A stretch of 64,000 nucleotides of DNA from an uncultured Gemmatimonadaceae bacterium (GTDB lineage: Bacteria > Gemmatimonadota > Gemmatimonadetes > Gemmatimonadales > Gemmatimonadaceae): NCBI GenBank assembly GCA_963829055.1, contig CAWHHI010000020.1, positions 416,001 through 480,000 on the forward strand, read 5' to 3'. The notes beneath the pieces are model-generated. The model did not search any database. It was given only the letters and a program-made list of their open reading frames with translations, and was not told the origin of the DNA. Positions 204 to 64,000 of this stretch are shown in pieces (positions within the stretch are counted from its first letter, which is position 1; every line of letters starts with the position of its first letter). The position numbers and the translations under genes were made by a program.

Positions 204-351
204 GACCGTGCCACGTTAGGCGCGACAGAGCTCGGTGCAAGCGGGTTTGTGGAGACCGCGCGTTGGCGCGACCACCGCGCCGAGCGGTTCCCCGCCAACG
301 GGGAGGACAATGGGCAGCGGTGACCGCACACCGGATCCCGCTCGGCGCCGA

Positions 352-486
352 CCGGTAACACGAAGGGCCAATGGTCAGCCCCCTGAACGCCGCCGATTGT
401 GCAGTGGTCGCGCCGGCCGATTGTGCTCGTGATTGGCCAGCGCGCGTCGTCGCGGGGATGACACCGTGCCCGCGACTACTCTCGAG
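352..486 (+). promoter_or_regulatory. Upstream region of the RND adaptor gene; diverged duplicate of 40279-40416
   Basis: Identical 21-mer CCGGTAACACGAAGGGCCAAT plus shared blocks GCCGATTGTGC, TCGCGCCGGCC, GATTGGCCAGCGCGCGTC and ACACCGTG. Confidence 0.75.
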
Positions 487-503
487 GATCGGACGGCTTC
501 GCC

Positions 504-1661
504 ATGGGGGCGCGTATGACGATATCGGGTTGGCGGTCAATGCCGGTACTGATCGCGTGTGTCGGTTTAAGCAGCTGCAAGGAGGCCCCACCGCCGGCGC
601 CGCCTCCACCCGACGTCGTCGTTCAGCCGGTTGAAGTGCGCGACGCGCCGGTGCAGGCCGAGTTCACCGGTGTAGTCCGCGGCGGCGAGGATGTGGAGGT
701 CCGAGCCCGAGTCGTCGGATTCCTTCAGTCGATGAACTATCGCGAGGGAACCGCGGTGACGAAGGGCCAACTGCTCTTCGTCATCGATCCCAAACCATTC
801 GAGGCCACAGCCGCGGAGGCCCGCGCATCCGTGGCAGAAGCGAAAGCGCGACACGACCGGTCTGTGATTCAGGTCAACCGGCTCCGGCCGTTGGCAGCGC
901 AGAACGCCGTGAGTCAGCAGGACCTCGACAACGCGTTAGCGGGCGAGGAAGCCACCCGCGCCGCCCAGGATGCCGCGCAGGCGCAGCTCACCAAAGGACT
1001 GCTCGACCTGAGCTACACACGGGTCACCAGCCCGATCAGCGGCACCGCGGGCAATCGCCTGGTCGACGTCGGATCGTTTGTCGGAACCCCGCAGCCCACG
1101 GTGCTCACCGTCGTGTCTTCGCTCGATCCGGTTCGCTTCGACTTCACGATTTCGGAGACCGAGTACCTCGCGCTTGCACGCTCGACCGCGAAGAACGGAC
1201 GAAAGCAACCGCCGTCGGAGGCTCCACTCGAGCTCGTTCTTGCTGACGGATCGATCCACCCACACAAGGGGCGGATCACGGTCGTCGGCCGCGGAGTCAG
1301 TGGAGAAACCGGCACGTTGCCGCTGCAGGCCAGCTTCCCCAATCCGGGCGGAGTCCTCCGCCCCGGCCAGTTCGGCCGCATACGACTCCCGATCACGACA
1401 CGCAAGAGCGCCATCGTGATCCCGCAACGCGCCGTGCAGGAGCTGCAAGGGACCTACAACGTTTTCGTCGTCGGTCCGGACAGCGTCGCCCAAACGCGCG
1501 AAGTCAAGGTCGCCAATCGGATCGGCAGCGACTGGGTCGTTTCCGAAGGTCTCGAGCCCGCCGACCGGATCGTGGTCGAGGGGCTGCAGAAGGTGCGTCC
1601 CGGTACGAAGGTGCGGCCGACGGCGAAGCTCGCAGCGCAGGACTCCGCGACCACGCGCTGA
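504..1661 (+). CDS. RND efflux periplasmic adaptor (MFP) lipoprotein
   Basis: Lipobox LSSC; VEVRARVVG, LLFVIDP, YTRVTSPISG, FPNPGGVLRPGQF, IPQRAVQELQG. True start may be 516 or 540. Confidence 0.93.
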   Translation: MGARMTISGWRSMPVLIACVGLSSCKEAPPPAPPPPDVVVQPVEVRDAPVQAEFTGVVRGGEDVEVRARVVGFLQSMNYREGTAVTKGQLLFVIDPKPFEATAAEARASVAEAKARHDRSVIQVNRLRPLAAQNAVSQQDLDNALAGEEATRAAQDAAQAQLTKGLLDLSYTRVTSPISGTAGNRLVDVGSFVGTPQPTVLTVVSSLDPVRFDFTISETEYLALARSTAKNGRKQPPSEAPLELVLADGSIHPHKGRITVVGRGVSGETGTLPLQASFPNPGGVLRPGQFGRIRLPITTRKSAIVIPQRAVQELQGTYNVFVVGPDSVAQTREVKVANRIGSDWVVSEGLEPADRIVVEGLQKVRPGTKVRPTAKLAAQDSATTR

Positions 1662-1681
1662 TTCATTCGCGGAGTTCGTAT

Positions 1682-1722
1682 CCGGCGACCGATCGCGACG
1701 ATCGGTCGCCGGCATCGTTTTG
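1682..1722 (+). terminator. Hairpin after the MFP gene, overlapping the decayed RND 5' remnant
   Basis: Perfect 14-bp stem CCGGCGACCGATCG-cga-CGATCGGTCGCCGG followed by catcgttttg. Confidence 0.5.
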
Positions 1723-5641: not shown

Positions 5642-5754
5642 GGGTCGACGTAGTCCGGCGCACGAGACCGTCGTACGCGAGCCGCCGGTACGCGAGACCG
5701 CCGCGGCGGGCGGCGCGACACGACCACGACGGAGTTCGCGGTCGCGAGCCCGGC

Positions 5755-8088: not shown

Positions 8089-8146
8089 CCTGACCCTCCC
8101 TGAGACGGGGGTCGCGAAAGGGACGGCCGCGAAGGCAGCAAAGAAG

Positions 8147-9469: not shown

Positions 9470-9494
9470 GGAACAACGGCACAGGAGAAATTCC

Positions 9495-10469: not shown

Positions 10470-10494
10470 GTCAGACCTCAAGGGGGTCGTTGAT

Positions 10495-14578: not shown

Positions 14579-15240
14579 ATGTCCGACGTGTCAGCCCTAC
14601 TCGAGCGAATCGATGCCGAGTTCTCCGCTCTCGACGGCAAGATCAAGCGGGCGCAGGGCGAGAAACTGCAGGAGCACAGGATCGGCAGCAACGTCTGACA
14701 ACGTTCAAGAGGGAATTGGATACGTTGCCCGACGTCTGGAGGCCTCGCCTGGAGGCGCTGATTCAGCGCTTCGGGGACAACGCCAAGGTGACTCCGCGCC
14801 TCGAGTCGACCAGTCGCGCGGTCGACGCATGAATTTCGAGTCGGAGCTGGCGCGCATCCACCTGCGGCTTTCGGCAACCATCGATCAGGACGTTCGCAAT
14901 CTCGTCCTGATCTACGATCTGGAGATCCTGCCCGCCCTCATGCAATTCGATTCGCATGCGCAGGCCAGTGGCCCCTCGATGCCATCGATCGCAAGGCGAT
15001 TGGGCACTGGGTCGATGACCGGATCGTCTCGTTCGTCAAGACGTATTTGTCACTGCACGAGAACGAGTACTACCTGAAGGAGCACATGGTCGAGCGATCC
15101 GGTGGCGGGCGTGCGATTTCCGAAGTTACGCGGCAGCCGCGACGCTCGACTGTGGGTGGAAAGACCTACTACTTCATCGGCGACGATACCCGTCGTGAGT
15201 TCGAGGCGAAGCAGCAGGAGTGTCCTCGGGACTCGCCTAA
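14579..15240 (+). CDS. YHS-like domain protein, frameshifted; end approximate
   Basis: MSDVSALLERIDAEF...YDLEILP...LHENEYYLKEHMV-DPVAGVRFPK...GKTYYFIGDDTRREF. Confidence 0.6.
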
Positions 15241-15290
15241 CGATTCACGCTTGCTGGAGCGCCGGGAACCCGCGCGCTCGAGGCATTCGC

Positions 15291-16706: not shown

Positions 16707-16746
16707 CGATACCGAAGTCTCCACCACAGCCACCGGAGCGTGCGTC

Positions 16747-20414: not shown

Positions 20415-20523
20415 GCTGTGCCTCGTGGGACTTTCATTCAATTGCAACGCTCTGCCGAGCGCGGCCAAAGTCAATGGACCGTTCGTAGCGCCCGGCAGAA
20501 TACACGGCCACGGAGTGAATCGT

Positions 20524-22971
20524 ATGACCCAGACAATCCACGAAGCGGCCGCCCGCACGCGCGAGCCGCTCTCTCCGACACGGAAGCTTCGGCAAGCTCG
20601 ATGCGCTGTGGCGCGCGTCGAACTATCTGTCGGTTGGCCAGATCTACCTGCTGGACAATCCGCTCCTCCGCCAGCCGCTCAACGCGGGAACACATCAAGC
20701 CGCGGCTGTTGGGGCACTGGGGCACCACGCCGGGTCTCAACTTCATCTACGCGCACCTGAACCGCGTGATCAAGAAGTACGACGCGGACATGATCTACAT
20801 CATCGGCCCGGGGCACGGCGGCCCGGCGCTGGTCGCGCACGCGTACCTCGAGGGGACCTACAGCGAGGTCTACCCGAACATCAGCCAGGACGAAGAGGGG
20901 ATGAAGCGCCTCTTCAAGCAGTTCAGCTTCCCGGGCGGCATCCCCAGCCACGTCGCTCCCGAAACACCCGGGTCGATCCACGAAGGCGGCGAGCTCGGGT
21001 ACGCGCTGTCGCACGCGTTCGGCGCCGCCTTCGACAATCCGGATCTGATCGTGGCCTGCGTCATCGGCGACGGCGAAGCCGAGACCGGTCCGCTGGCCAC
21101 CGGCTGGCACGGCAACAAGTTCCTGAACCCGGCGCGCGACGGCTGCGTGCTGCCCATCCTGCATCTCAACGGCTACAAGATCGCCAACCCCTGCTTCCTC
21201 GACCGCATTCCGAGGGAGGAGCTCACCAAGCTGCTCGAGGGATACGGCTACGAGCCGTACTACGTCGAGGGCCACGAGCCTAACGCGATCCACCGGCAGA
21301 TGGCGGCAGACGCTCGACGCCGTCATGGCGGACATCCGGCGCATCCAGGCCGACGCGCGTGAGCGATGGCGTTAGGCAGCGGCCGATCTGGCCAATGATC
21401 GTGCTGCGCACGCCGAAGGGCTGGACCTGCCCCACGCGAGATCGACGGCAAGCTCTGCGAGGGTTACTGGCGCAGCCACCAGGTGCCGATGGGCGACATG
21501 GACAAGCCGTCGCACATCGAGATCCTGGAGCAGTGGATGCGGAGCTACCGCCCCGAGGAGCTGTTCGACGAGGCGGGCACGCTCGTGCCCGAGCTGGCGG
21601 AGCTCGCGCCGAACGGCGAGCGGCGGATGAGCGCCAACCCTCACGCGAACGGCGGCCTCAAGCTCAAGGACCTGCGTCTGCCCGACTTCCGCAAATACGC
21701 GGTCGACGTCAAGAAGCCGGGCGCAGCAACGGCCGAGTCGACGCGGGTTCAGGGGAAGTACCTGCGGGACGTGATGAAGCTCAATCTGGACCAGCAGAAC
21801 TTCCGCGTCTTCAGCCCCGACGAGAACAACTCCAATCGCTGGCAGGACATCCTCGAGGTCACCAACCGGTGCTTCATGGCCGAGATCCGTCCGGAGGACG
21901 ATCACCTCGCACCGGACGGCCGCGTGATGGAGGTCCTGTCGGAGCATCAATGCCAGGGCTGGCTCGAAGGCTATCTGCTCACCGGACGGCACGGCTTCTT
22001 CAGCTGCTACGAGGCGTTCATCCACATCATCGACTCGATGTTCAACCAGCACGCGAAGTGGTTGAAGGTGTGCAGTCACATCCCGTGGAGACGGCCGATC
22101 GCGTCGCTCAACTACCTGTTGAGCTCCCACGTCTGGCGTCAGGATCACAACGGCTTCAGCCACCAGGATCCGGGCTTCATCGATCACGTGATCAACAAGA
22201 AGGCGGAGGTGATCCGGGTCTACCTGCCGCCCGACGCGAACACGCTGCTGTCGGTGACGGATCACTGCCTGAAGAGCCGCAACTACGTCAACGTCGTCGT
22301 CGCCGGGAAGCAGCCCGCGCCGCAGTGGCTGACCATGGACCAGGCGATCAAGCACTGCACCGCGGGCATCGGGATCTGGGAGTGGGCCAGCAACGACCAG
22401 GGGAGCGAGCCGGACGTGGTCATGGGATGCTGCGGCGACGTTCCGACGCTCGAGACGCTGGCCGCCGTGCAGCTGATGCGGCACCATCTGCCGGAGCTCA
22501 AGGTCCGCGTGATCAACGTGGTGGACCTCATGCGCCTGCAGTCGGCGGAGGAGCATCCGCACGGGCTGACCGACAAGGAGTTCGATGTCCTGTTCACGAA
22601 GGACAAGCCGATCGTCTTCGCGTTCCACGGGTACCCGTCGCTGATCCACCGCCTAACGTATCGCCGGACCAACCACCGGAACCTCCACGTGCGCGGCTAC
22701 AAGGAGGAAGGCACGACGACGACGCCGTTCGACATGGTCGTGCTGAACGAGCTCGATCGCTTCCACCTCGTGCGAGGACGTGATCGACCGCGTGCCGCAG
22801 CTCGGGGCGCGAGCGGCGTACTTCAAGCAGGCGATCCGCGACAAGCTGATCGAGCACCGGCAGTACATCGAGACGCACGGCGACGACATGCCGGAAATTA
22901 CCGGGTGGCGCTGGGCGGACGACAAGTCGAAGCCCGCGCGTGGCACCTCGACCGAAGGCGACAACGTGTAA
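20524..22971 (+). CDS. xfp: Phosphoketolase (XFP), frameshifted
   Basis: [74 protein letters not shown]. Confidence 0.93.
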
Positions 22972-40416: not shown

Positions 40417-40489
40417 CATCCAGGTCGAGACAAGGCAGGATGCCAGTTCGTCCCCGCGCTGCCTCGACTCCGTCAACAAACGTTGACTC

Positions 40490-43400
40490 ATGGCTGACTT
40501 CTTCATTCGGCGGCCGATCGTCGCGATCGTCATCGCCATCGTCATCACGCTGCTTGGTCTCGCCGTTCTGCAGCGCCTTTCCATCGAGCAGTATCCCGAG
40601 CTGGCGCCACCGAACATTCGGGTGGAAACCACCTACCAGGGTGCCTCCGCCGAGGTGGTGGAGCAGTCGGTCGCCACGCCGATCGAGCAGCAGGTGAACG
40701 GCGTGGACAACATGATCTACATGAAGTCGCTCAACACGAGCGACGGGCGCATGCTGCTCGACATCTCGTTTCAGGTCGGCATGGATCGCGACATGGCGAA
40801 CGTGCTCGCGCAGAATCGCGTGTCGCAGGCCCAGTCCCGGCTGCCGCAGGAAGTGATGCAGCAGGGAGTCACGGTCAAGAAGCTCAACCCCAGCATCCTG
40901 ATGGTGGTCTCGCTCTACTCGCCGAAGGGGAGTCGAGACGCGCAGTTCCTCAATAACTACGCGATGATCAACATGCGGGATGCGCTCCTCCGCGTGCCCG
41001 GGATCGCGCAGGTGGATCTCTACGGCGGCGCCGAATACGGCATGCGCGTCTGGCTCCGTCCCGATCGCCTAACGCGGCTCGGCCTGACGCCAGCGGATGT
41101 CATCGACGCCATCAAGGAGCAGAACCTCCAGGCGCCCGCAGGACAGGTCGGTGCCGCTCCCTCGCCGCCAGGGCAGGAGTTCACCTACACCGTGAAGGCA
41201 CCGGGCCGCCTCGTCACCGCCGAGGAGTTCGACAACATCATCATTCGCCAGACCGCGGGCGGCGGAGAGCTCCGACTCAAGGACGTCGGGCGGGCCGAGC
41301 TTGGAAGCGAGAATTACCGCTCGTTCGGACGCGCGATCGTGAAGGACTCGACCGGCAAGTGGACGGGCGGCGCCGCGGCGTCGCTCCTCGTGTACCTCCT
41401 GCCCGGCGCCAACCAGCTCGCCTCGGCCGAGGGGGTTTACCACTCGCTCGAGGAGTTCGCGACGTTTTTCCCGACCGACGTGGCGTACAAGATCGTGTAC
41501 GACACCACGCCCTCGGTCGAGGCGAGCATCCACGAGATCCTCAAGACGCTCGTCGAGGCATTCATTCTCGTGAGCCTCGTGGTGTTCGTGTTCCTGCAGA
41601 GCTTCCGCGCCACGATCATCCCGCTCCTCACCGTGCCGGTGGCGCTCGTGGGCACGTTCATCTTCTTCCCGCTGCTCGGCTTCTCGATCAACACGCTCAC
41701 GATGTTCGGCCTCGTGCTGGCGATCGGCATCGTGGTGGATGACGCGATCGTGGTCGTGGAAGCGGTGATGCACCACATCGAGCACGGGAAAACACCCAGG
41801 GACGCGACGGTCCAGGCCATGAAAGAGGTGTCCGGGCCGGTGATCGCGATCGCCCTCATTCTCTCGGCGGTGTTCGTGCCGGTGGCGCTGCTTGGCGGCC
41901 TGACGGGCCGGGTGTACCAGCAGTTCGCGCTGACCATCGCCATCTCGGTGCTCCTGTCCGCGTTCCTGGCGCTGAGTCTCGCGCCGGCGCTCGCCGCGAT
42001 GATGCTCAAGCCCGCCAAGCAGACCGGTGGCCTGCTGGGCAAGTTCTATCGCGGGTTCAACAAGATGTTCGATGTGACGACGACCAAGTACGTGAGCTGG
42101 ACGCGCTTGTTCGTCAGGCGAGCGATCCTGGTGGTGGTGGTCCTGGTCGTGGCCACCGGCGTGACGGGTCGTTCTTGGCAGTTCGCTTCCGAAAGGGTTC
42201 GTGCCCGACGAAGACCTGGGCGTCTTCATGATCAACGCCCAGCTGCCGCCCGCGTCATCGAGCGAGCGGACCGACGGCGTCGTCCGGCAGATCGAAGAGG
42301 TGCTGAAGAAGACCGATGGTGTGGTCGCCTGCACCGGCATCGGCGGATCGGGAATCCTCACGAACTCGTTCAGCCCGGAGTTCGCCTCGTTCTTCTGCAG
42401 GCTCGAGGACTGGGACGAGCGGAAGACACCGGCGCTGCACGTCAGCGGGATTACGCAGACGCTGAGACGCTCGCTCGCGGGGATTCCAGGCGCCGTGATC
42501 TTCCCGTTCACTCCACCGACGATCCCGGGGTTCGGCGCGGCCGGTGGCTTCAACTTCCTCCTGCAGGACCGAAGCGGGACGATGAGCGTGCAGGATCTCG
42601 GGAAGCAGACACAGGTCTTCCTGGACGCCGCGCGCAAGCGACCCGAGCTCGCCAACCTGTTCACGTCGTTCAACGCGCAGGTCCCGCAGGTTCAGGTCGA
42701 GCTCGACCGGGAGAAGGCACGCACGTTAGGCGTGCCGATCAACGACGTGTTCGCCGCGCTGTCCGCCGCGATGGGTGGCGCGTACGTGAACGACTTCAAC
42801 CGGTTTGGGCGGCTCTATCGCGTGTACGTGCAGGCAGAGCCCGCGTTCCGTCAGAAGCCCGTGACATCGGGCAGTTCTACGTGCGGAGTCGGACGACGAA
42901 CGAGATGGTGCCGCTCTCCACGCTGATGACGATCACGCCCGGCTCGGGTACGGAGATCACCACCCGGTTCAACCTGTTCCGGTCGGTCGAGATCACCGGG
43001 GTGCAAGCGCCGGGCTACACGTCGGGTCAGGCCATGACGGCGCTCGAGGAGACGGCGACGCAGGTGCTCCCGCGCGAGATGGGGTACGCGTACTCGGGTT
43101 TCTCGTACCAGGAGAAACAGGCGCCGCCAGCGGGACCGACGTTCGTGCTGGCGATCGTCTTCGTCTTCCTGCTGCTCGCGGCGCAGTACGAGAGCTGGAA
43201 GCTCCCGTGGGCGGTGCTGCTGGAGACGCCGCTCGTCGCGTTAGGCGCGTTCTTTGGCGTGTGGGTCGCGGGCTACGACAACAACGTGTTCGTGCAGGTG
43301 GGCCTGATCATGCTGGTGGGGCTCGCCGCCAAGAACGCCATCCTCATCGTGGAGTTCGCAAAGATGCGGCACGAGGCCGGTGCGTCGGTGGAAGAGGCCG

Positions 43401-43726
43401 CACTCGACGCCGCAAAGCTCCGCTTCCGCCCGATCCTCATGACCGCGTTCGCCTTCATCATGGGCGTCGTGCCGCTGATGCTCGCGAGCGGCGCCGGTGC
43501 CGCCGCGCAGAACCGCATGGGCACGGCGGTGTTCTCCGGGATGCTCGTCGCAACGGTCGTTGGCGTGTTCCTCATCCCCGGACTGTTCGCGATGGTCGAG
43601 CGCATGGGGTTCCGGAAGAAGCCACAGCGCGCCGCCGTGCCGCCGGGAGCGGGACTTGGGCGCACCGCCGGCCGCGCCCGTTCCGGCCAGCGCGGCTCCG
43701 CCTGGAGGACACTGACGTGCACCTAA
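40490..43726 (+). CDS. RND (HAE1-type) efflux permease, frameshifted
   Basis: MADFFIRRPI, EQYPELAPP, PIEQQVNGV, GLVLAIGIVVDDAIVVVE, GLAAKNAILIVEFA, RFRPILMT. Confidence 0.93.
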   Translation: MADFFIRRPIVAIVIAIVITLLGLAVLQRLSIEQYPELAPPNIRVETTYQGASAEVVEQSVATPIEQQVNGVDNMIYMKSLNTSDGRMLLDISFQVGMDRDMANVLAQNRVSQAQSRLPQEVMQQGVTVKKLNPSILMVVSLYSPKGSRDAQFLNNYAMINMRDALLRVPGIAQVDLYGGAEYGMRVWLRPDRLTRLGLTPADVIDAIKEQNLQAPAGQVGAAPSPPGQEFTYTVKAPGRLVTAEEFDNIIIRQTAGGGELRLKDVGRAELGSENYRSFGRAIVKDSTGKWTGGAAASLLVYLLPGANQLASAEGVYHSLEEFATFFPTDVAYKIVYDTTPSVEASIHEILKTLVEAFILVSLVVFVFLQSFRATIIPLLTVPVALVGTFIFFPLLGFSINTLTMFGLVLAIGIVVDDAIVVVEAVMHHIEHGKTPRDATVQAMKEVSGPVIAIALILSAVFVPVALLGGLTGRVYQQFALTIAISVLLSAFLALSLAPALAAMMLKPAKQTGGLLGKFYRGFNKMFDVTTTKYVSWTRLFVRRAILVVVVLVVATGVTGRSWQFASERVRARRRPGRLHDQRPAAARVIERADRRRRPADRRGAEEDRWCGRLHRHRRIGNPHELVQPGVRLVLLQARGLGRAEDTGAARQRDYADAETLARGDSRRRDLPVHSTDDPGVRRGRWLQLPPAGPKRDDERAGSREADTGLPGRRAQATRARQPVHVVQRAGPAGSGRARPGEGTHVRRADQRRVRRAVRRDGWRVRERLQPVWAALSRVRAGRARVPSEARDIGQFYVRSRTTNEMVPLSTLMTITPGSGTEITTRFNLFRSVEITGVQAPGYTSGQAMTALEETATQVLPREMGYAYSGFSYQEKQAPPAGPTFVLAIVFVFLLLAAQYESWKLPWAVLLETPLVALGAFFGVWVAGYDNNVFVQVGLIMLVGLAAKNAILIVEFAKMRHEAGASVEEAALDAAKLRFRPILMTAFAFIMGVVPLMLASGAGAAAQNRMGTAVFSGMLVATVVGVFLIPGLFAMVERMGFRKKPQRAAVPPGAGLGRTAGRARSGQRGSAWRTLTCT

Positions 43727-45112
43727 CGACGTCGCGGCGTCGGCGCGGCGCTCCTGCTGACCGTGGTCACGGCGTGCCGCATGGGGCCGAACTACGAGCG
43801 CCCGGAAACCACGCCGGTGCCGACGGCATGGCGGGACAGCGCGCAGGCCGGGCACGACTCGTCGTTCGCGAACGTTCCGTGGTGGGGCGTGTTCAACGAC
43901 GACACGCTGCAGACGCTGATCCGACGCGCGCTCAAGGAAAACCGCGACGTTCACATCGCGCTCGCCCGCGTGAACGAAGCGCGCGCACTGCTCGGGATAC
44001 AACGGCTGGAGTACTACCCGCAGATCAACGTGCAGGCCGGCTTGCGCAAGTCCGACGGTGCCGATTCCCTGCTCACCGGCGTCACCAACAGCGAGATGGC
44101 GTGGCTCGGCGGCGGACTGTCCTGGGAGCTCGATCTGTGGGGACGGTTGCGACGCTTGAACGAAGCGGCGGCCGCCGAGCTTCTGGCGACCGAGGAAGGA
44201 CGCCGCAGCATGATCCTCACCGTGGTGAGCGACGTCGCGCGCGCCTACATGGAGGTGATCGAGCTCGATGACCAGGTGGCCCTCACCGACACGCAGGTGG
44301 TCATCCGGCGCGCATCGCTCGCGCTGGCTCGTGGACGGTTCCAGGGCGGGCTGACGTCCGAGATGGATGTCCGCCAGGGGGAGCTCGCGCTGGCCGTAGC
44401 GGAAGGCAGTCACACCCGGGCGCTCCGACAGCGGGCGCAGAAGGAGAACGAGATCAGCGTGCTGTTGGGCCGCACGCCCGGCGGGGTCCCGCGCGGGTTG
44501 CGGTTGTCCCAGCAGGGCATCCCCACGGCGATCCCGGCCGGCCTGCCGTCGAACCTGCTCACGCGCCGCCCGGACGTTAGGCAGGCGGAGGAGCAGCTGC
44601 GCGCGGCGAACGCCAGGATCGGCGCCGCGAAGGCCGCAATGTTCCCCACGATCGCACTCACGGCGACCGGCGGGACCATCAGCGATGAGCTCGGGTCGCT
44701 GTTCAAGGCGGCACCGGATTCTGGCGCCTCGCACCCAGCCTGTTTCAGCCGATCATCAACACCAGCCGAAACCGCAAGCAGATCGCGGCCGAGCGCGCGC
44801 GCACCGAGGCGGCGGTGGGTCAGTACGAGAAGACGGTGCTGACGGCGTTTCGGGAGGTGGAAGACCAGTTGGTCGCCGTGCAGCGGTTGCGCGAGGAAGC
44901 CGACGCCGCGGGGCGTGCCTCGACGGCGGCGCGACAGGGCGTACGCCTGGCCGGGACTCCGCTATGAAGGCGGCGTTGACAACTACCTGACACTGCTGGA
45001 CGCCCAGCGGGCACAGCTCGACGCCGACCTGCAGTCGTCCGGACTGGAGCGACAGTACCGCGTGGCCGTCGTGCAGCTGTACAAGGCGTTAGGCGGTGGG
45101 TGGGACCCGTGA
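43717..45112 (+). CDS. Efflux outer-membrane factor (NodT/OprM family) lipoprotein, frameshifted
   Basis: Lipobox VTAC-RMGPNYERP, WELDLWGRLR, PAGLPSNLLTRRPDV, LYKALGGGW. Confidence 0.9.
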
Positions 45113-45184
45113 CCGACACGCTGGCACTGCCCAACCGCGGCCACGACCGGCACGGCTGTCAGCACCTAACGTCACGGTCGGTCG

Positions 45185-45214
45185 CGGGGCGCGCGAAGAC
45201 GGTCGCGCGCCCCG
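45185..45214 (+). terminator. GC-rich hairpin after the OMF gene
   Basis: CGGGGCGCGCGA-agacgg-TCGCGCGCCCCG, 12-bp stem, no U-tract. Confidence 0.35.
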
Positions 45215-45327
45215 TGCCCGGCACGCCCGACTACACCTTGGTCCCGTAGCCGGGGCATGTCGCCGCTCCCATCGTTGCCTCCGGAGACCGCGCTGTCGCG
45301 GCAATGACTTCCATCCGGGGCAAACCG

Positions 45328-46528
45328 ATGAGTCGCCTTTTGAAACCCGTCTTCGTCACCGTCGTGCTGCTTGCGAGCGTGCAGTCGATCGCGACGGCAC
45401 AAAGCGGATCGCAGTCGACGATCAACGTCTACGGGTTCGTGATGCTCGATGCCGGCTACAACTTCAACCAGATCAATCCCAACTGGTACGGACGTGGTAC
45501 GGCCCACCAAGCTGCCCTCGTTCAAGGACCAGTACGCGCCGGACGGCAACATGTTCTTCGGCGTCCGTCAGACGAGGCTCGGCGTCAAGGGGAACGTGCC
45601 GACGCCGATCGGTGAGCTCAAGACCACGTTCGAGTTCGAGCTGTTCGGCACGGGCGTCGACGAGGGACAGACGACGTTCCGGCTCCGGCACGCCTACGGA
45701 GAGTTGGGCAAATTCGGCGCCGGCCAGACGTGGAGTCCGTTCATGGACATCGACGTCTTTCCCAACTCGCTCGAGTACTGGGGCCCCACCGGGATGGTGT
45801 TCTTCCGCAACCTCCAGGTGCGGTGGATGCCCATCCAGGGCGATACCCGCATGACGATCGCGCTCGAGCGGCCGGGAGCCAGTGCCGACCAGGGCACGTA
45901 CGCCGGCCGCATCGAGCTGCAGGATGTGAAGCCGAGGTTCCCATACCCCGATCTCTCGGCGGAATACCACCTGGGCAGGAAGTGGGGATACGTCGAGCTG
46001 GCGGGGATGGTTCGGCGCATCGAGTGGGAGGACCAGGGCACTGACGCGTTCGACCTCTCCGGCAACGCCACGGGCTGGGGCCTGAACCTGAGCTCCAACC
46101 TGAACCTGGGCAAGAGCAGCGTCGCGCGGCTCCAGGCGATGTACGGCGAAGGCGTCGAGAACTACATGAACGACGCGCCGGCGGACATCGGGATCGAGAA
46201 CCAGCCCGGCAACCCGGTCGCGCCGATCAAGGGCGTCGCGCTTCCGGTGACCGGCGTCGTCGCGTTTCTCGACCACACGTGGAACACCAAGTTCACCACG
46301 GCCATCGGGTATTCGATGGTGGACATCGACAACAGCGCGCAGCAGTCGGCCGACGCGTTCAGCAAGGCGCAGTACGCGTTAGGCAACCTCCTCTACAGCC
46401 CGACGCCGGGGGTGACCGCTGGAGTGGAGTTCCAGTGGGGGAACCGGGACAACTTCTCCGACGGCTTCACGTCGGACATCCGCAAGGTCCAGTTCTCGTT
46501 CAAGTACGCGTTCGCCAAGACCTACTGA
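45328..46528 (+). CDS. DcaP-like outer-membrane porin; one indel near 45488
   Basis: Signal peptide; INVYGFVMLD, VRQTRLG, FRLRHAYGELG, GQTWSPFMD, VQFSFKYAF. Confidence 0.8.
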
Positions 46529-46559
46529 AGACCTACTGAAGACCACTGAAGACCAACTG
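46517..46559 (+). repeat. Four tandem degenerate copies of AAGACC(T/A)ACTG across the porin stop codon
   Basis: aagacctactg aagacctactg aagaccactg aagaccaactg. Confidence 0.8.
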
Positions 46560-46571
46560 AGGCTGCGAGCC

Positions 46572-47624
46572 ATGCATCGGATTCATCGCGAACTGTTCAC
46601 GCTGGCGCTCACGGCCGCCGGGGCCACAGCCATCCTGGCATCTCCGGTGCGGGCACAGAGCGCCAAGACCACCGGTCAGGACCAGGCCATCGTGACGGCC
46701 CTGAACGAGACGTACGCAAAGTTCAAGAACCTGCAGGAAGGCAAGAACGCCGATTACATCCCGGCGCTCGCCAAGGTCGATCCCAAAATCTTCGGCATCG
46801 CGCTGATCACCACGGATGGAAAGGTCTACACCGCCGGCGACATCAAATCGGAAGTCTCGATCCAGTCGATCTCGAAGGTGTTCACGATGGCCAAGGTCAT
46901 GGAGGAACAGGGACCTGAAGTCATCGAGAAGACCGTCGGGGTCGACGCCACCGGCATGCGCTTCAACTCGATCGTGTCGGTCGAGTTCTCGCAGAAGGCG
47001 CTCGGCGGCCCGGAGATGAACTCGCTCGTCAACCCGGGCGCCATCGCCACGACGTCGATGGTCAAGGGCAGCACCCGGGATGCGGTGTGGAACAGCATCC
47101 TCGGGTTCTACTCGGACTTCGCGGGCAGGCCGCTCTCCGTGAATCAGGAAGTGTTCAAGTCCGAAGCGGAGACCAATCAGCGCAACCAGGCCATCGGTGC
47201 CCTGATGTACGCCTACGGGTACATCAAGGCGAAGCCGGCCCAGGCGACCGACATCTACACCGAGCAGTGTTCGGTAAACGTCAACGCCAGGGACCTCGCG
47301 ATGATGGCCGCGACGCTCGCCGCCGGAGGCAAGAATCCGGCGACCGGCAAGCAGGTGATGGCGGCGAAGAACGTACCGTACGTGCTGGCGGTCATGGCCA
47401 CGGCGGGGTTGTACGACGATTCCGGCAAGTGGCTCTATCACACGGGCCTGCCCGCCAAGAGCGGCGTTGGTGGCGGGATCATCGCGGTGGCGCCGGGCAA
47501 GTTCGGGATCGCCGTCATCTCCCCGCCGCTCGATGACGCCGGGAACAGCGTCCGCGCGCAGCGCGCCATCAGAGAGATCGTGGCACGGCTGCATGCCAAC
47601 CCCTACGAGGTGGCAGCGCGGTAG
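46572..47624 (+). CDS. glsA: Glutaminase A with N-terminal signal peptide
   Basis: ADYIPALA, catalytic SxxK in SIQSISKVF, NPGAI, GLPAKSGVGGGI; hydrophobic leader ending VRA-Q. Confidence 0.92.
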   Translation: MHRIHRELFTLALTAAGATAILASPVRAQSAKTTGQDQAIVTALNETYAKFKNLQEGKNADYIPALAKVDPKIFGIALITTDGKVYTAGDIKSEVSIQSISKVFTMAKVMEEQGPEVIEKTVGVDATGMRFNSIVSVEFSQKALGGPEMNSLVNPGAIATTSMVKGSTRDAVWNSILGFYSDFAGRPLSVNQEVFKSEAETNQRNQAIGALMYAYGYIKAKPAQATDIYTEQCSVNVNARDLAMMAATLAAGGKNPATGKQVMAAKNVPYVLAVMATAGLYDDSGKWLYHTGLPAKSGVGGGIIAVAPGKFGIAVISPPLDDAGNSVRAQRAIREIVARLHANPYEVAAR

Positions 47625-47744
47625 CGCACCCGTCCGATGGGGGAGGGTACGGCGTCTCCCCTCACTGCCTAACGCCGGTGATGACTGCGTGGGGTGCCTG
47701 ACGCACCGTATGCCGGCTCGTTGCCTACCCTCACGGAGTTACCG

Positions 47745-49107
47745 ATGCCCTTGACGCGTCCTGCGGCCACGAGCTCGTGCCTGGCCGTCACCCTCGCGCG
47801 GCCATTGCTGATACTCGCGGCGTTCCTGGTCGCGATCCCGCCCGCGCGGCTCGCGGCCCAGGAGGACCCGGGACGAAGCGCCGCGGATACGGCTACCGCC
47901 AAGGATACGATGTACACGTCCAGCATCGGGGGAGAGTTCCGTCCCGCCAAAGGCTTCGACCTCGTCCGGACGAAACGGTCCAGTCTGAACATCAGCTTTT
48001 ACGGGCTGTTCCGGTATATGAATCAGACTCCGGGCAGCCAGACATTCACGGACCACCTGGGCCGGGAGCGCACCGTCAAGGCCCGCCAGGACCTGAACTG
48101 GCATCGCACGTTCGTGTGGCTCACCGGTTTCTTTTGGGTTCCAAAGTTCCGGTACAACATCTCGCTCTGGTCACTGCCGACGACGCAGCAGACGCTGCTC
48201 TTCGGGAACCTCCAGTATTTCTTCCAGTCCCGCGTTCAACCTTGGCGTCGGGATCACGCCCAATCTCACCAGCCGCTCGGTACAAGGCTCATGGCCGTTC
48301 TGGGGGTCGAGCGACCGACAGATGGCGGACGATTTCTTCCGCGGCGGGTTCTCGTCCGGCATCTTCGCCACGGGGCTGGCGCTCCCGCGGCTCAACTACA
48401 CCGTCTCGGTGAACACCAACATCAGCCAGCTCGGCACGACCGCGGCAAATGACTCGCGCGACTTTGCCTACAGCGGGAGCCTGGTCTGGAGGCCGACGAC
48501 CGGAGAGTTCGGTCCGCGCGGCGGATTGGGTGACTTCGAATATCATAAGACGCTGGCCACCCAGTTCGGCATTTCGGCCGGCCACAGTCGCGAGTCCCGC
48601 TACGCGAACGACAGCGCGCCGCCTAACGCGACACAGATCAAGCTCTCCGACGGCGTCAACCCGTTCGAAGAGAACGCGCTGGCCCAGGGCGTGACGGTGC
48701 AGAAGCTCGATTACGATGAGATGGCCGTCGACGCGGGACTCAAGCTCCGCGGCTTCTCGCTCCAGAGCGAGTACTACTGGCGCCGGCTGTCCAACTTCCA
48801 GACCATCGGCGGCCCGGTCCCGATGAATTCCATCTTCGATCACGGATTCCAGGTGCAGGCGATGCAAATGGTCGTCCCGACGAAGCTCGGCCTCTACGCG
48901 GTGTACGGGAAGGTGTTCGACGACTTCAAGCGGAATCCCTACGAGATATCGGGCGGCGCCAACTTCTACCCGTCGGGAACGCGCAGTTGGCGACTCAACC
49001 TGCACCTGATCAACGTGAAGCGGAGCCCGGCGGCCTCGAACTTCGGGTTCTACACATCAGGGCAGACCGGCACGACCATATCGGCGGGAATCGATATCCT
49101 CATGTGA
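47745..49107 (+). CDS. Uncharacterised outer-membrane beta-barrel protein; one indel near 48225
   Basis: Signal peptide (RLAA-QE), aromatic amphipathic strands, C-terminus TTISAGIDILM; ORFs 47694-48452 and 48322-49107. Confidence 0.6.
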
Positions 49108-49195
49108 CGGAACGCTCACCGCGTATCGCCGTGCCTAACGAGCATGCAGGGACGCGTGCCGTCGACTGTTGGTAACCCGTTCAGGCGAACGATCA

Positions 49196-57513: not shown

Positions 57514-57531
57514 TCGTTAGGTCACGTTAGG

Positions 57532-58947
57532 TCATCGCCCCTGCCCCGTCAGCGCCGCCGGGTTGAGGATCTCGGTGATCTGATCGTCGGTCAGGATGTG
57601 TTTCTCGCGGATCATTGCGACGATCCCCTGATCGGTCCTCATCGCCTCCGCGGCCAGCTCGGTTGCCTTGTGGTAGCCGATGACCGGGTTCAGCGCCGTC
57701 ACCGTCCCGATGCTGTACTCGACATAGTGCTTGAGGACATCCGCGTTTGCCGTGATCCCCTCGATGCAGAACTTGCGCAGCGTCTCGGCGGCGTTGATGA
57801 GCAGCGTCTGGCCCTCGAAGAGCGCGGCGGCCACGACCGGCTCGAAGCAGTTGAGCTGCAGCTGTCCCCCCTCGGCCGACAGCGTGACCACCAGGTCATT
57901 GGCCATGACGCGATACGCGACCATGTTCGTCACTTCCGGGATGACCGGGTTCACCTTGCCCGGCATGATCGACGAGCCGGGCTGCGCGGCCGGCAGGTTG
58001 ATCTCGCGGAATCCGGTGCGCGGGCCCGACGACAGAAGCCGCAGGTCGTTGCCGACTTTCGCGAGCTTGATCGCCACGCTCTTGAGCACGGACGAGTAGA
58101 GCACGAACGCCTGCATGTCCTGCGTCGCTTCGATCAGGTCCTCGGCGAGGTGGATCGGGAAGCCGGTGATCTTCGCCAGGTGGTCAGCACACTTCTGCGC
58201 GTAGCCCGCTGGCGCGTTGAGACCCGTGCCGATGGCCGTGCCGCCCATGTTGATCTCGTACAGGACGCGCTGCACGGCCTCCAGCGCCTTGACTTCATCC
58301 GCCAGCGTGCGCGCAAACGCCCTGAACTCCTGGCCTAACGTCATGGGGACGGCGTCCTGGAGCTGCGTCCGACCCATCTTGACGAGGTCCTTGAACTCCT
58401 CCGCCTTCTTCTCGAAGGCTGCAGAGAGCTTCTTGTAGGCCTCGATGACCTGGCGGTTGCCGAGCGCGAGGCCGACGTGCAGGGACGTGGGATACGCGTC
58501 GTTGGTCGACTGGGACCGATTCACGTGATCGTGCGGGTCCACGTGCTGGTACTCGCCCTTCCTGTGTCCCATCAGCTCGATCGCGCGATTGGCGATCACC
58601 TCGTTGATGTTCATGTTGGTCGACGTCCCCGCGCCGCCCTGGTACACGTCGAGCCGGAACTGATCGTGGAGCTTGCCGTCGATGATTTCCTGGGCGGCCT
58701 CCTCGATGGCGGTGAGGACCTCCTTGGAGAAGCCTCCGGTCTCGAAGTTGGCGCGCGCGGCAGCCAGCTTCACCATGGCCAGCGCCTTGATCAGGTTCGG
58801 GTAGTGACGAAGCTCGATGCCCGAGATCTGAAAGTTCTCGAGAGCGCGTGCAGTCTGGACGCCGTAATAGGCGTCGGCAGGGACTTCGAAATCACCGAGG
58901 AGATCGTGTTCGGTCCGTGTTTTCGACGACGGCATTTCGGCCTCCAC
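57532..58947 (-). CDS. aspA: Aspartate ammonia-lyase
   Basis: RTEHDLLG, YYGVQTARALENF, QGGAGTSTNMN, QSTNDAYP, KMGRTQLQDAVP, GSSIMPGKVNPVIPE. Confidence 0.92.
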   Translation of the reverse strand: MEAEMPSSKTRTEHDLLGDFEVPADAYYGVQTARALENFQISGIELRHYPNLIKALAMVKLAAARANFETGGFSKEVLTAIEEAAQEIIDGKLHDQFRLDVYQGGAGTSTNMNINEVIANRAIELMGHRKGEYQHVDPHDHVNRSQSTNDAYPTSLHVGLALGNRQVIEAYKKLSAAFEKKAEEFKDLVKMGRTQLQDAVPMTLGQEFRAFARTLADEVKALEAVQRVLYEINMGGTAIGTGLNAPAGYAQKCADHLAKITGFPIHLAEDLIEATQDMQAFVLYSSVLKSVAIKLAKVGNDLRLLSSGPRTGFREINLPAAQPGSSIMPGKVNPVIPEVTNMVAYRVMANDLVVTLSAEGGQLQLNCFEPVVAAALFEGQTLLINAAETLRKFCIEGITANADVLKHYVEYSIGTVTALNPVIGYHKATELAAEAMRTDQGIVAMIREKHILTDDQITEILNPAALTGQGR

Positions 58948-60902: not shown

Positions 60903-61034
60903 GTGCCTCGCGCGCATCGGGTGCAGGTCATCGTGCAGAGACTGACGATGGTGCCACTGCACCTCACGCACGCGCCATTGGACTTTCGCCCCGCCGTCAG
61001 TCACCGGCGCGCCCACCGGCGCGTCCACCGAGGC

Positions 61035-62701
61035 TCACATCAGCCGCGGCCCGTGGGCACGGGCGTCTCGACGACGCGATCCGAGTTGGGCGGCGCCGCC
61101 GGCCGCGCGAACCACTGGTCGCGCGGAACGATCTTCGGCTGCTCCGGGTCGCCCTCGTACGCCGGCGTCATGATCTGAATGCCGTACTCGTTGAATGCAT
61201 CCAGGATGTTTCGGTGCAGCGCCGAGTAGAGCCGCGACCATCCGGCTCGGATCGTCCGTGTAGGCGTTGAGCTCGTAATCGACGGCGAAGTCGCCGAGCT
61301 TGCGCTGGAGCACGAATGGCTCGGGGTCCGTCCGCAGCCCGGGCGTACGCCGCGCCGCCTCGAGCAGAATGGCTTCCACCTGACGCCAGGGTGTCTCGTA
61401 GCCGATGCCGACGTTCGTGTGCAGGATGAGCCCCGCGTCGCCGGCCAGCGTGCTGAAGTTCACGACCTCGCTGTTCAGAATGATCGAGTTCGGGATCACG
61501 ATCTGCTCGTTCTTCGGCGAGCGGAGGTAGGTGGTCAACAACCGGACCTGCGCCACCTCACCGATGTGCTCGCCAATGCGTACGCGATCGCCGACCCGGA
61601 ATGCCCGGCGAAACGCGAGGCTCAAGCCCGCGACCAGGTTGCCGATGACGGACGGAGACCCGAGCGAGAACATGAGCCCGATCACGAGCCCGATTCCCTT
61701 GAACGCATCGGAATCCGAGCCGGGGATGTGCGGGTAGGCGACGACGAGCGCGAAGGCGATGATCGCGAATCGCGCGATGCGCTCCGTGGGCTGTGCCCAC
61801 TCCGGGTCGAAGCCCTGAAACGTGATCGCCCCTTCGGTTATGCGTCGGAAGAAGATCCGGTTGAGCCTCATGAAGAAGCGAACGACGAACATGAGGACGA
61901 TCAGGAACAGCAGGCTCGGGATGAACCGGACGAATCCCGTGCCCAGTGTCTCGAGCGGCTGCAGGAGCAGGGACGCCAGGCTGTTGCCGAGCGCGCGCGT
62001 CCAGGGAAACAGCAGCAGGACGTAGTCGACATACACGTAGCCGGCCGCCAGGGTGATGATGGTCGCGATTCCCCGCACGGCATTCTGCACGGCGTTCCAC
62101 AGCTGCTCGCCGCGCATGATGTCGATCGTCTGGAACTGGACGTCGTGGACCCTCGTCCGGTACCGCCGCTCCACGAGCGCGCGAACGCGCCGGAGGACGC
62201 GGCGGCCTAACGCGATGAACAGCACGAAGCCGAGCGTCGCGGCGGCTGCCCTGGCGAGATCCTCCCAGAGCGCGGCCGCCTCGCGATCGCGCCGGAACTG
62301 CGTCATGGCTTCGACCACGCGGGTGCGGTAGGCCTCCGCCAGCACCTGACGCGTCAGGCCCTCGACCGCGGCGTCCGCGTCGAACACGCGCGAACAACCG
62401 CCGGCCGCCGCCGACGATGAACGTTGCCACGGTCGTGTCCTTGACCGTGACCGACTCGACGGGAAACGCCCGGTCGGACGCGAGCGCCTCGATGCGACCG
62501 GCGATCTCGGCGGCGCGCCGCTCGGCGGGGTAGGAGGAGATTCCGCGGACCCGAAAGATCGTGGCGCCGTCCAGCATCACGGGCGCCGTGGCGGTCACCA
62601 CCTCGGTCTGGACGGCGGCGGAATCCTGAGCCGCCACCCGCGGTGCTCCAGGCGACGGCCAGCGCTGCGAAACCTAGCGCGATGCGGTGCCTAACGTTCA
62701 C
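61035..62701 (-). CDS. MscS-family mechanosensitive channel with periplasmic N-terminal extension, frameshifted
   Basis: NLVAGL, FRVGDRVRIG, IVIPNS, VGIGYETPWRQV, PFVLQRKLGDFAVDYELN, YGIQIMTPAY. Confidence 0.88.
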
Positions 62702-62724
62702 AGCCGTGACCCTTGCGGCACCGG

Positions 62725-63840
62725 CTACCAGCCCTGCGCGCGCTCCCACGCGCGCACCTTCTGGCGCGCGGCGTCGAACAGCCGCTCGTAGTTGCCCTTG
62801 CGCACTTTCTCGCTCGCGTCCGGCGTGAGTAGGGCCCACAGCGGACGATAGCTCTCGAAGACCGCGTAGTACTGTGTCGTATCCTTCGGCGCCACCACGT
62901 CCGAGCCGAACAGGAAGCGGTCGGGATAGCGGTTGATCATCTCGGCGGCGCGACGGGTGATCGCCGGAGACGACAGGATGTACTTCGCCACTTCGTCCCA
63001 GCTGATGTCGAAGTACACGTGGCGCAGCGCGGGGTCGGAGAGAATGCTTTCCACGATGACGGCGTGGTTGGGATTCCACTCGGACGCGGGAGCCGACGCG
63101 GACGCCTGGACCGGATGCACCACGCGCCCCAGCCCCATATGCGCCCAGATGATCGTCGTCTTCGGGTGCCGCCGGAGCAGGGCTTTCATCTGGTCGAGGA
63201 AAACGGGGTCGGCGCCCGCCTTCGCAAATGGCATGTCCATGTCGTTGTGAAAGACCACGACGAGCCCCGCCTCACCCGCCAGATCGAGAATCCGGTCCAG
63301 GGCCGGATTCGTTAGGCTGGCCACCTCGCCCGCGACCTTGGACGACACGAACTCCTTGTGAATGCTGAACTCACCAATCCCCGAGAAGACGCCCGGGAAG
63401 GTCTTCAATACCCGGCGGATGTGGTCGGCGGCGTACATGTCCGCCGGGTTGAAGCCCGTGATCATCGGGTCGAGCCGCGCGCGCTGCTCCGGCGGCAGCG
63501 AGCGGTACGCCATCGCAATGAAGGCGTCCGTGAACGAGTAGTAGTAGAGCGGGGCGTCGCTCTGGAGATAGTAGGTGGGCGCGAAGTCGCCGGAGTTCGC
63601 GTGTGACCACGTCTGCTGCAGCGGGATCCCGAACAGCGTCGAACGACCGGCACGCGTTCCCATGATGCGCAGGAAGTCCCGGACGTCGGTGCCTTCCTGG
63701 ATGTAGTTCGTCAGGTGGAAATGCGAGTCGTCGAAGTCGTAGCTGGTGCCTTGCTTGCCGGCTTGCGCGGCGGCCGTGCTGCCGGCCGCCGCCAGGGCGA
63801 CGAGCACCGCTCCCGCGTACCAGCCATGGGATCGCGTCAT
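62725..63840 (-). CDS. Exported amidohydrolase-superfamily protein
   Basis: Signal peptide; HxH motif DSHFH, GIGEF, WAHMG, DISWD, PDRFLFGSD. Confidence 0.8.
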   Translation of the reverse strand: MTRSHGWYAGAVLVALAAAGSTAAAQAGKQGTSYDFDDSHFHLTNYIQEGTDVRDFLRIMGTRAGRSTLFGIPLQQTWSHANSGDFAPTYYLQSDAPLYYYSFTDAFIAMAYRSLPPEQRARLDPMITGFNPADMYAADHIRRVLKTFPGVFSGIGEFSIHKEFVSSKVAGEVASLTNPALDRILDLAGEAGLVVVFHNDMDMPFAKAGADPVFLDQMKALLRRHPKTTIIWAHMGLGRVVHPVQASASAPASEWNPNHAVIVESILSDPALRHVYFDISWDEVAKYILSSPAITRRAAEMINRYPDRFLFGSDVVAPKDTTQYYAVFESYRPLWALLTPDASEKVRKGNYERLFDAARQKVRAWERAQGW

Positions 63841-63879
63841 GGGTGTACCTGCTCCTCCCGTCAGGCGGCGTCCGGCCTG

Positions 63880-64000
63880 CATCAGGATGTCGGTTCCGGT
63901 GGATGTCGTCGTGCGATCGATCAGCACGTCGGCGTCGGCTAGCGCGTTGGCATCGACTGGATCGACGCCGTCGGAGAGCGTGACCGTGTCGCGTTAGGCG
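63880..64000 (-). pseudogene. Internally deleted remnant of a paralog of the 47745-49107 outer-membrane protein (runs off the window)
   Basis: PNAT / TLSDGVDPVDANALA...TTTSTGTDILM versus PNATQIKLSDGVNPFEENALA...TTISAGIDILM. Confidence 0.65.

Follow-up and report, generated by a model that had tools for sequence, protein, structure and literature searches.

An over-represented octamer in Gemmatimonadaceae genomes that coincides with the core of the family's integron attC sites

A stretch of 64,000 nucleotides from an uncultured Gemmatimonadaceae bacterium (G000:C20:416001-480000, hereafter the window) carries the non-palindromic word CCTAACG, or its complement CGTTAGG, in and between genes on both strands, and raises the question of what keeps a word of this kind at such a density and what might read it. 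The genome that contains the window, G000, comprises 7,784,024 bases in 20 contigs with a GC content of 66.7%. A preliminary description of the window, made by hand, had counted about 80 six-mers and about 74 seven-mers, and both numbers proved exact on recount; every coordinate that it cited was present among the computed 7-mer sites. Counted on both strands, the window holds 80 copies of CCTAAC/GTTAGG, 74 of CCTAACG/CGTTAGG, 70 of GCCTAAC/GTTAGGC, and 64 of the full 8-mer GCCTAACG/CGTTAGGC. The 7-mers are divided into 39 on the plus strand and 35 on the minus strand, with a median gap of 815 bases and just 5 gaps shorter than 200 bases. In 100 dinucleotide-preserving shuffles of the window the 7-mer occurred 3.15 times on average (standard deviation 1.9, maximum 9), and a count of 74 was not attained in any of them. 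The over-representation claimed earlier was confirmed, with about 3 copies expected from the shuffles where the base-composition estimate had given roughly 7, and the GC content of the window, estimated by eye at about 68%, was measured at 66.1%.

Across G000, a total of 6391 copies of the 7-mer and 5004 copies of the 8-mer were found, corresponding to roughly one copy every 1.2-1.5 kb. Counting of 6- to 8-mers against a Markov null, as the preliminary description had proposed, gave an excess of the 8-mer over expectation of 38-fold at order 1, 49-fold at order 2, and 19-fold at order 3, and the word scored highest at k = 5 to 8 under all three orders. These lower orders were used because the sub-words are themselves enriched, so that maximal-order scoring masked the word. 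In a logo of 7103 CCTAAC sites the preceding base was G in 79% and the following base G in 90%, with A as the runner-up at both ends, and the flanks outside the 8-mer were almost information-free (less than 0.2 bit per position). The variant GCCTGACG, which differs from the word at one position, occurred at 2.4 times its expectation; the remaining one-off variants were depleted no lower than is usual for words that contain TA.

Coding regions were called in G000 using a simple codon-usage model, which yielded 5231 regions covering 68% of the genome. The called regions held 3735 7-mers and 2947 8-mers. Ten shuffles among synonymous codons gave 281-351 and 125-170 copies, respectively, and ten shuffles of the codon order gave 154-196 and 53-77; the excess over the synonymous shuffles is approximately 12-fold for the 7-mer and 20-fold for the 8-mer. 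A lack of enrichment over a codon-preserving shuffle, by which the signal was to have been refuted, was accordingly not observed. All four stop-free reading frames are used genome-wide (1094, 711, 1422, and 508 sites), as had been proposed from the window, and the forcing of rare codons was also borne out: the word accounts for 1422 of the 2629 TTA codons (54%), 1218 of the 3165 Pro-Asn pairs are spelled CCTAAC, and TTA-GGC ranks as the third commonest spelling of Leu-Gly. The two stop-bearing frames provide genuine stop codons, the word holding 215 of the 679 TAA stops and 164 of the 1371 TAG stops of G000. The force that maintains the word acts on DNA and not on protein sequence, which agrees with the earlier view of a DNA-level signal, since synonymous shuffles give about 12 to 20 times fewer copies.

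A sequencing platform artefact was ruled out, as the word is abundant in fragmented assemblies of other projects. It is equally abundant in six congeners of G000, of which G001 to G005 are in 260-1170 contigs each, and the near-closed genomes G061 (4 contigs), G094, and G183 are of word-rich species as well. The loci nearest to the window belong to metagenome-assembled genomes (MAGs) labelled Gemmatimonadaceae, and those from other projects include L001, with 12 words in 21 kb, and L003, with 11 words in 11 kb; the contig names of these two MAGs presumably point to short-read assemblers. Near-identical DNA turned up in 20 runs belonging to 13 studies, which had sampled rhizosphere, soil, and freshwater sediment. 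Window positions 40001-50000, which include 11 sites, are covered by contigs of four other studies, the material compared being assembled contigs only; the 40 substitutions and 12 indels listed, out of 613 and 34 detected, all lie outside those 11 sites. Absence of the word from short-read assemblies of this or related genomes had been named as the mark of an artefact, and the word was present both in the congeners and in the independent MAGs.

The orientation of the sites was compared with GC skew and gene strand on draft contigs of G000, not on a closed chromosome. No skew was observed with respect to GC skew (rho = -0.17 over 145 segments of 50 kb; pooled counts 526:570 and 839:814) or gene strand (rho = -0.03), so that the polarity of Chi or KOPS type for which a check had been suggested was not seen and the earlier statement that sites occur in both orientations whatever the gene strand was extended to the whole genome. 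On the four largest contigs examined (C4, C11, C16, and C20), runs of like orientation were as expected by chance. All 20 contigs carry the word, at 0.64-1.09 sites per kb. The spacing is more even than chance, with 408 gaps shorter than 200 bases where about 977 were expected from an exponential distribution and a surplus at 400-1600 bases; gaps shorter than 10 bases numbered 6 genome-wide compared with 53 expected. Placement along genes is uniform. As had also been reported for the window, sites occur between genes, and their density rises from 0.71 per kb in called coding sequences to 0.96, 1.41, and 1.68 per kb in short divergent, tandem, and convergent spacers, respectively, figures which for the spacers take in some missed genes. 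Sites are denser where constraint is low.

Conservation and turnover of the sites were determined by alignment of G000 with two congeners, over approximately 147 kb for G005 and 121 kb for G001, at 78% identity. Sites of G000 were present at the same position in 63 of 108 cases in G005 and 43 of 80 in G001 (54-58%), whereas 7-mers in general and words of matched composition were shared at 23-25%; the word was among the ten best conserved of 1100-1400 words. With the two relatives summed, non-shared sites differed at one position in 42 cases, at two in 56, at three in 36, at four in 21, and at five in 3. The commonest alternate was CCTGACG (19 cases), which corresponds to a synonymous CTG/CTA or GTC/GTT swap in two reading frames, followed by CCGAGCG (17 cases), a CTC/TTA swap between leucine codons. 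With the more distant L001, one of eight sites was shared. Given the sharing above background, the differences at one to five positions, and the synonymous alternates, the sites arise by ordinary point changes, outlast their surroundings, and are replaced over time.

Foreign-looking DNA is without the word. Three word-free stretches of 31-50 kb were found at contig ends of G000 (C6:5440-55038, C6:591808-623330, and C11:1-44055), and the GC content is raised in both of those on C6 (0.70 and 0.73). One of them, C6:5440-55038, was tested for duplicated genes and carries duplicates, at about 50% identity, of housekeeping genes that are otherwise single-copy (FtsK, DAHP synthase, chorismate synthase, and peptidase M17); judged from these sequences, it is probably either a mis-join with DNA of another organism or a large foreign insert. 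The word is of practical use as a marker, as stretches free of it drew attention to about 125 kb of G000 that is probably foreign or mis-joined, and its density could serve in the same way for MAGs of this kind.

The taxonomic range of the word, the mapping of which had been recommended, was surveyed in 401 Gemmatimonadaceae genomes of 77 genera. Seven unpublished genomes (G013, G055, G056, G154, G268, G286, and G313) enter the tallies only, and no conclusion rests on them. Fourteen of the 77 genera include a genome with more than 1000 copies (g1, g9, g16, g38, g47, g50, g51, g58, g59, g65, g72, g79, g80, and g83), the top count being 7821 in the 6.1 Mb of G209; several intermediate genera have 300-900 copies, and most have 2-60, which is under the 100-400 of the reversed control word. 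Members of one genus have similar counts, but g59 is split between six species with 3200-4100 copies (G070, G170, G202, G231, G258, and G326) and eight with 4-66 (G128, G283, G305, G347, G364, G380, G395, and G409). Amplification of this core spans genera with GC contents from 61% to 74%, with small 'dialects' in the flanks, namely a trailing A in G014 and G209, GCCTAACA in G183, and a leading T in G061. Among relatives with low or moderate counts, samples of 15-60 kb from G010, G019, G036, G040, and G128 showed no alternative 'dialect' word that stood out, and a sample of G020 showed the same word, weakly. A tree based on two genes, PilM and PilQ, was computed for 45 genomes, which were chosen as extremes of the trait with intermediates left out (G004, G011, G065, and G380 were omitted on account of partial hits). 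Word-rich genomes fall into at least five separate clades of this tree, and six changes are forced by well-supported branches.

A likeness to a defined recombination site was found in the integrons of the family. The targets of integron integrases are given in the accessible text of PMC3053210 as the core GTTRRRY and the inverse core RYYYAAC, and GTTAGGC and GCCTAAC match these consensus sequences. The word is the R''/R' core of Gemmatimonadaceae integron attC sites, identical to the R'/R'' boxes of the cassette arrays of the family, and bounds attC-like hairpins in G027, G025, G061, G072, and G183. The preliminary description, which stated that none of the known signals it had listed has this sequence, overlooked the integron core, in which GTTAGGC/GCCTAAC is in use. 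A total of 24 attC-like hairpins of 90-136 bases were located in 20 kb of G027:C95 and 9 in G025:C3, where they run from GCCTAAC (or GTCTAAC) to CGTTAGGC (or CGTTAGAC). Repeat-domain genes were considered for the same-strand runs of words spaced by about 550 bases on these two contigs, which belong to word-poor genomes, and were rejected, as the hairpins show cassette arrays. Sites resembling attC also adjoin intI in the word-rich G061 (11 sites) and the word-poor G072 (3 sites); in the latter genome, a single contig, 9 of the 17 words lie within 33 kb of intI.

G000 itself encodes an integron integrase at C20:208041-208958, approximately 208 kb upstream of the window, and two attC-like hairpins lie near it, at 205101 and 207188. 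The integrase scores 265.7 bits, which is barely above the family cut-off, and a run of GCCTAAC in one orientation lies together with hairpins on its 3' side (G000:C20:200429-208958); the cassettes of G000 appear to lie downstream, not upstream, of the integrase gene. At most about 50 of the 6391 sites of G000 have a possible attC-like hairpin partner. Over 98% of the copies in the chromosome stand alone as solo words, lacking an inverse partner, L boxes, and a hairpin, and an imperfect palindrome of attC type, able to fold and with 57-141 bases between inverse core and core, has no more than those approximately 50 candidates in G000.

Co-distribution of the word with protein families was examined in a panel of 24 word-rich and 25 word-poor genomes. 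Integron integrase (TIGR02249) was above the cut-off in 15 of the 24 rich and 20 of the 25 poor genomes and does not track the abundance of the word; it was full-length in 35 of the 49. The IntI tree likewise mixes rich and poor rows, with 10 changes, and 63-71 of 500 shuffles gave as few. This tree, which covers 32 genomes (loci L259-L299 and others), is at odds with that of PilM and PilQ: G142 (g79) is placed with G016 (g11), and one copy of G183 (g83) pairs with G057 (g46). This disagreement suggests horizontal movement of integrons within the family. The integrase of two word-rich genomes is fragmented or bears a stop codon (G014:C182:835-1781 and G094:C1:1329299-1329826), and these two are possible pseudogenes. 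In the word-poor, three-contig G079, the few words are clustered at C2:347729-350011 and C3:2169605-2180692, away from both integrase genes; a simple attC finder detected no hairpins in the cluster on C2, and the clusters may be cassette clusters that lack an integrase or something else.

Thousands of copies maintained against codon habits, together with the identity with the integron core, imply that some putative system must read the word. Our tentative preference, which we hold to be quite possible though short of probable, is that it is kept as a self-marking DNA word by a transfer-biased drive resembling that of DNA uptake sequences. The machinery that moves DNA between related cells would handle fragments bearing the word preferentially, the likeliest candidate being the uptake route of type IV pilus, ComEA, ComEC, and DprA that G000 encodes, and homologous recombination would write these fragments into recipient chromosomes. 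Point mutations that create the word, mostly synonymous changes to rare codons, would then spread, and those that destroy it would be replaced. The specificity may have arisen on the attC core as the most repeated conserved word of the shared mobile gene pool of the family, after which several lineages might have amplified the same word, either independently or through transfer of the reader. Such borrowing would explain why separate clades amplify one and the same word, and it fits the supply of cassettes to chromosomal integrons by transformation that is described in the accessible part of PMC12614218.

This preference derives from the agreement of the anatomy of the word with published traits of uptake sequences. 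In the accessible text of PMC1939737, uptake sequences show no orientation bias, are spaced with significant evenness, lie to 65% in open reading frames (Haemophilus influenzae), and are in excess in non-coding DNA. The word of Gemmatimonadaceae resembles the DNA uptake sequence (DUS) and uptake signal sequence (USS) in being short and non-palindromic, occurring about once per kilobase on either strand with no skew relative to replication, lying within genes in several frames, denser between genes, evenly spaced, and genus-wide with small flank dialects. Like them, it is missing from foreign-looking DNA, and competence machinery is present in G000, which encodes ComEC, DprA, a ComEA-like HHH_3 protein, PilQ, and PilM. 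It differs in that it belongs to another phylum, in soil bacteria; a ComP-type receptor is lacking, competence genes are equally present in word-poor relatives, inverted pairs of terminator type are scarce, the conserved genome is not favoured, and the word doubles as a site-specific recombination core.

Several results weigh against a transfer-biased drive. None of the families tested on the panel of 24 rich and 25 poor genomes tracks the abundance of the word, and no reader was found among them. PilM and the ComEA-like HHH_3 protein were each detected in 49 of 49 genomes and do not separate rich from poor. ComP_DUS (PF16732) had no hit in G000; elsewhere it gave matches below the threshold in 9 of the 24 rich and 9 of the 25 poor genomes, and its sole hit above the cut-off was in the word-poor G016. 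The pilin genes beside pilM form three groups common to rich and poor genomes (15 rich and 17 poor, 11 and 9, and 5 and 5, respectively), none of them specific to the rich ones; trees of these groups follow the tree of PilM and PilQ. Inverted terminator-like pairs, which are typical of DUS, are rare, the pairs within 60 bases numbering 13 convergent and 15 divergent, or 28 of 6371 gaps. Sites are not concentrated in the conserved genome, as the part of G005 aligned to G000 had 0.82 per kb compared with 1.04 in the rest of G005, and the corresponding part of G001 had 0.66 compared with 0.85. The gene calls are crude, with many assembly frame breaks, and the non-coding figures consequently include missed genes. 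Finally, the fact that the word equals the integron core might point instead to an integron-linked protein as its intracellular reader.

Other candidate readers were sought in the same panel. The only D12 methylase family of G000 (PF02086) occurred in 8 of the 24 rich and 17 of the 25 poor genomes; G000, which is 86% complete, had no match to Vsr, N6_N4_Mtase (PF01555), C5 DNA_methylase (PF00145), or N6_Mtase (PF02384). RecC was not found in G000 and occurred in 2 of 24 rich and 3 of 25 poor genomes, and VirB4 in 2 of 24 and 1 of 25. The search for co-distributed methyltransferase or ComP-like genes that had been suggested for the window was therefore negative for D12 and ComP_DUS alike. The natural contrasts within the family, namely the split of g59 and the at least five word-rich clades, mean that comparative genomics should be able to name the reader.

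The main rival, which we consider unlikely, is that the integrase, or a protein that co-evolved with attC, binds the solo words as secondary, attG-like docking or exchange sites or as integrase-dependent entry points for incoming DNA, the words accumulating because capture or exchange would favour the segments between them. It draws on the fit of the word to the integrase targets GTTRRRY/RYYYAAC in the accessible text of PMC3053210, on its use as the R''/R' pair of genuine attC hairpins (G027:C95, G025:C3, G061, and G072), on the crowding of the G072 words towards intI, and on the integrase of G000 with its two hairpins. The typical spacing of the word in G000, 0.8-1.2 kb, is also of the same order as the 0.5-0.7 kb that separates attC sites in cassette arrays. 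However, the chromosomal words are solo and derive from point substitutions in conserved genes, and how abundant they are does not depend on whether an integrase is present or of which type it is, as rich and poor genomes both have it and are intermixed in its tree; the few sites able to pair as an attC-like hairpin and the nearly information-free flanks, which leave no L box, likewise argue against it. Thousands of active recombination sites within genes would do harm, and we know of no integrase reaction that turns a near-match into the word.

An architectural or maintenance signal, for which a nucleoid, replication, or repair protein would bind the 8-mer about once per kilobase, selection would keep the sites, and attC would use the same factor, is distinctly improbable. 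Even spacing, presence on every contig of G000, and conservation above background are in its favour, as is the occurrence of the word on another contig of G061, 1.1 Mb long, where a 20-kb piece holds 18 sites, 11 attC-like ones among them. It would require selection on thousands of individually dispensable sites, which turn over quickly, and close relatives of the same lifestyle do without the word, as in g59 with its 3200-4100 copies versus 4-66. No candidate architectural protein is known to us. The same argument was raised and then set aside for uptake sequences, according to the accessible text of PMC1939737.

There is a slim chance that the chromosomal words are working half-sites of the integron system, each segment of about 1 kb in the word-rich lineages being flanked by integrase cores. 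If this were true, chromosomal genes could be exchanged between diverged relatives or captured as cassettes from transformed single-stranded DNA; this would provide a route for the making of cassettes, an open question of integron biology, and would turn the whole genome into a cassette reservoir.

A HIP1-like origin, in which a DNA methyltransferase marks the word and mismatch repair of very-short-patch type restores it, is very improbable. HIP1 (GCGATCGC) of cyanobacteria, the other classic hyper-abundant word, is likewise an octamer with comparable enrichment in genes and a quasi-regular distribution, and the enrichment found here is of the size known for it. The 2.4-fold excess of GCCTGACG, which is also the commonest alternate at non-shared sites, is what deamination and repair might give. 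In contrast to the word of Gemmatimonadaceae, which is non-palindromic and for which no co-distributed methylase was found, HIP1 is palindromic and recognised by two methylases. The methyltransferase-linked repair that had been suggested for the window is further disfavoured by the missing Vsr and three methylase families in G000, by the higher frequency of D12 among poor genomes, by the spread of differences at non-shared sites over one to five positions with no single hot position, and by the other one-off variants, whose depletion does not exceed what is normal for words containing TA. HIP1 itself is now linked to transformation, according to the accessible text of 10.64898/2026.06.24.733823. 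A polar recombination or segregation signal of Chi or KOPS kind, which had also been put forward and would suit a short, non-palindromic word over-represented in resident DNA, can be dismissed almost entirely, being refuted on the draft contigs by the missing skew with GC skew and gene strand, and given that RecC is not found in G000 or in 22 of the 24 rich genomes but occurs in 3 of the 25 poor ones and that known Chi sites are far less enriched.

The comparison with DUS/USS and HIP1 made in the preliminary description was upheld as regards abundance and embedding in genes, and the signal is comparably strong in a widespread soil and rhizosphere family. Neisseriaceae and Pasteurellaceae are known mainly from animal hosts. 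In the accessible part of 10.1101/2025.10.24.684340 these are the sole two families named as having hyper-abundant uptake words, DUS and USS, respectively. A literature search, in which subscription-only papers were not covered, extended to the word and its 7-mers and, for Gemmatimonadetes, to uptake sequences, over-represented octamers, and integrons; it found no paper that contains the word or describes the phenomenon. As the word is an integron recombination core, a genome-wide signal is tied to a defined problem of DNA-protein recognition, and if the word governs DNA exchange, as a transfer-biased drive would have it, it bears on gene sharing among soil bacteria, integron cassettes included.

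Within the window, the 74 7-mers lie in the range 214..63998. Those on the plus strand start at positions 1879, 4241, 6855, 7434, 8873, 11461, 12396, 15236, 16263, 16702, 19200, 21279, 22652, 24282, 24863, 25788, 27979, 30531, 32200, 33181, 35489, 37212, 38066, 41068, 43722, 45165, 47668, 48622, 49134, 52271, 54577, 54768, 56627, 58334, 59334, 59389, 60355, 62206, and 62690, and those on the minus strand at positions 214, 2717, 3014, 3953, 5981, 8268, 11132, 13056, 13621, 15448, 19524, 21370, 23068, 27730, 28570, 29443, 31011, 31534, 33460, 33897, 42724, 43239, 44575, 45087, 46377, 50299, 51319, 53213, 55981, 56938, 57515, 57525, 60596, 63310, and 63992.

Individual sites illustrate the ways in which the word is accommodated. 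The plus-strand site at 58334..58340 lies within a fumarase C gene on the minus strand (57535-58947; Pfam Lyase_1 and FumaraseC_C) and reads ACG TTA GGC (Thr-Leu-Gly) on the coding strand; the orthologue in L001 spells the identical residues ACT CTC GGC, so the word was made here by a synonymous switch to the rare codon TTA. The plus-strand site at 43722..43728 (CC TAA CG) provides the TAA stop codon (43724-43726) of an AcrB-family transporter gene at 40490-43726 (ACR_tran). At 57515..57531 on the minus strand, two intergenic words with starts 10 bases apart form the direct repeat TGACCTAACG TGACCTAACG and lie in the 21-base spacer between the fumarase gene and a gene of the Na/sulfate symporter family. 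The stretch 40463..49100 was aligned to the congener G005 at 83% identity, with 9 of its 10 window sites at the same position while the flanks differ; G005 has 4 extra sites in this alignment, 2 of which differ from the window by a single A/G (CCTGACG in place of CCTAACG).

Two further sites (21279 on the plus and 21370 on the minus strand, together 21279..21376) lie inside the phosphoketolase (XFP) gene at 19893-22976, which is split over three reading frames in the assembly, and an amino-acid permease gene at 15102-16860 is split over two. Contigs of other studies show 1-base indels relative to the window at 40027, 42862, 43658, 43731, 44953, and 45487, each in at least two runs. The G000 assembly seems to hold many small indel errors, which fits its marker completeness of 86%. 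The frame breaks were considered as a hint of base modification at the word, and this was rejected, as indels are not concentrated near sites: indels of 1-2 bases relative to G005 and G001 lay within 20 bases of a site in 3.8% of cases compared with 3.3% for random positions, a comparison that is noisy at 78% identity. The window also contains three paralogous Orn/Lys/Arg decarboxylase genes (4088-5638, 5866-8085, and 10423-12825), accompanied by amino-acid permeases, a solute-binding protein, and, farther along, a glutaminase (window 4088-12825 and 46572-47621), an unusual concentration that may represent an acid-stress or polyamine island.

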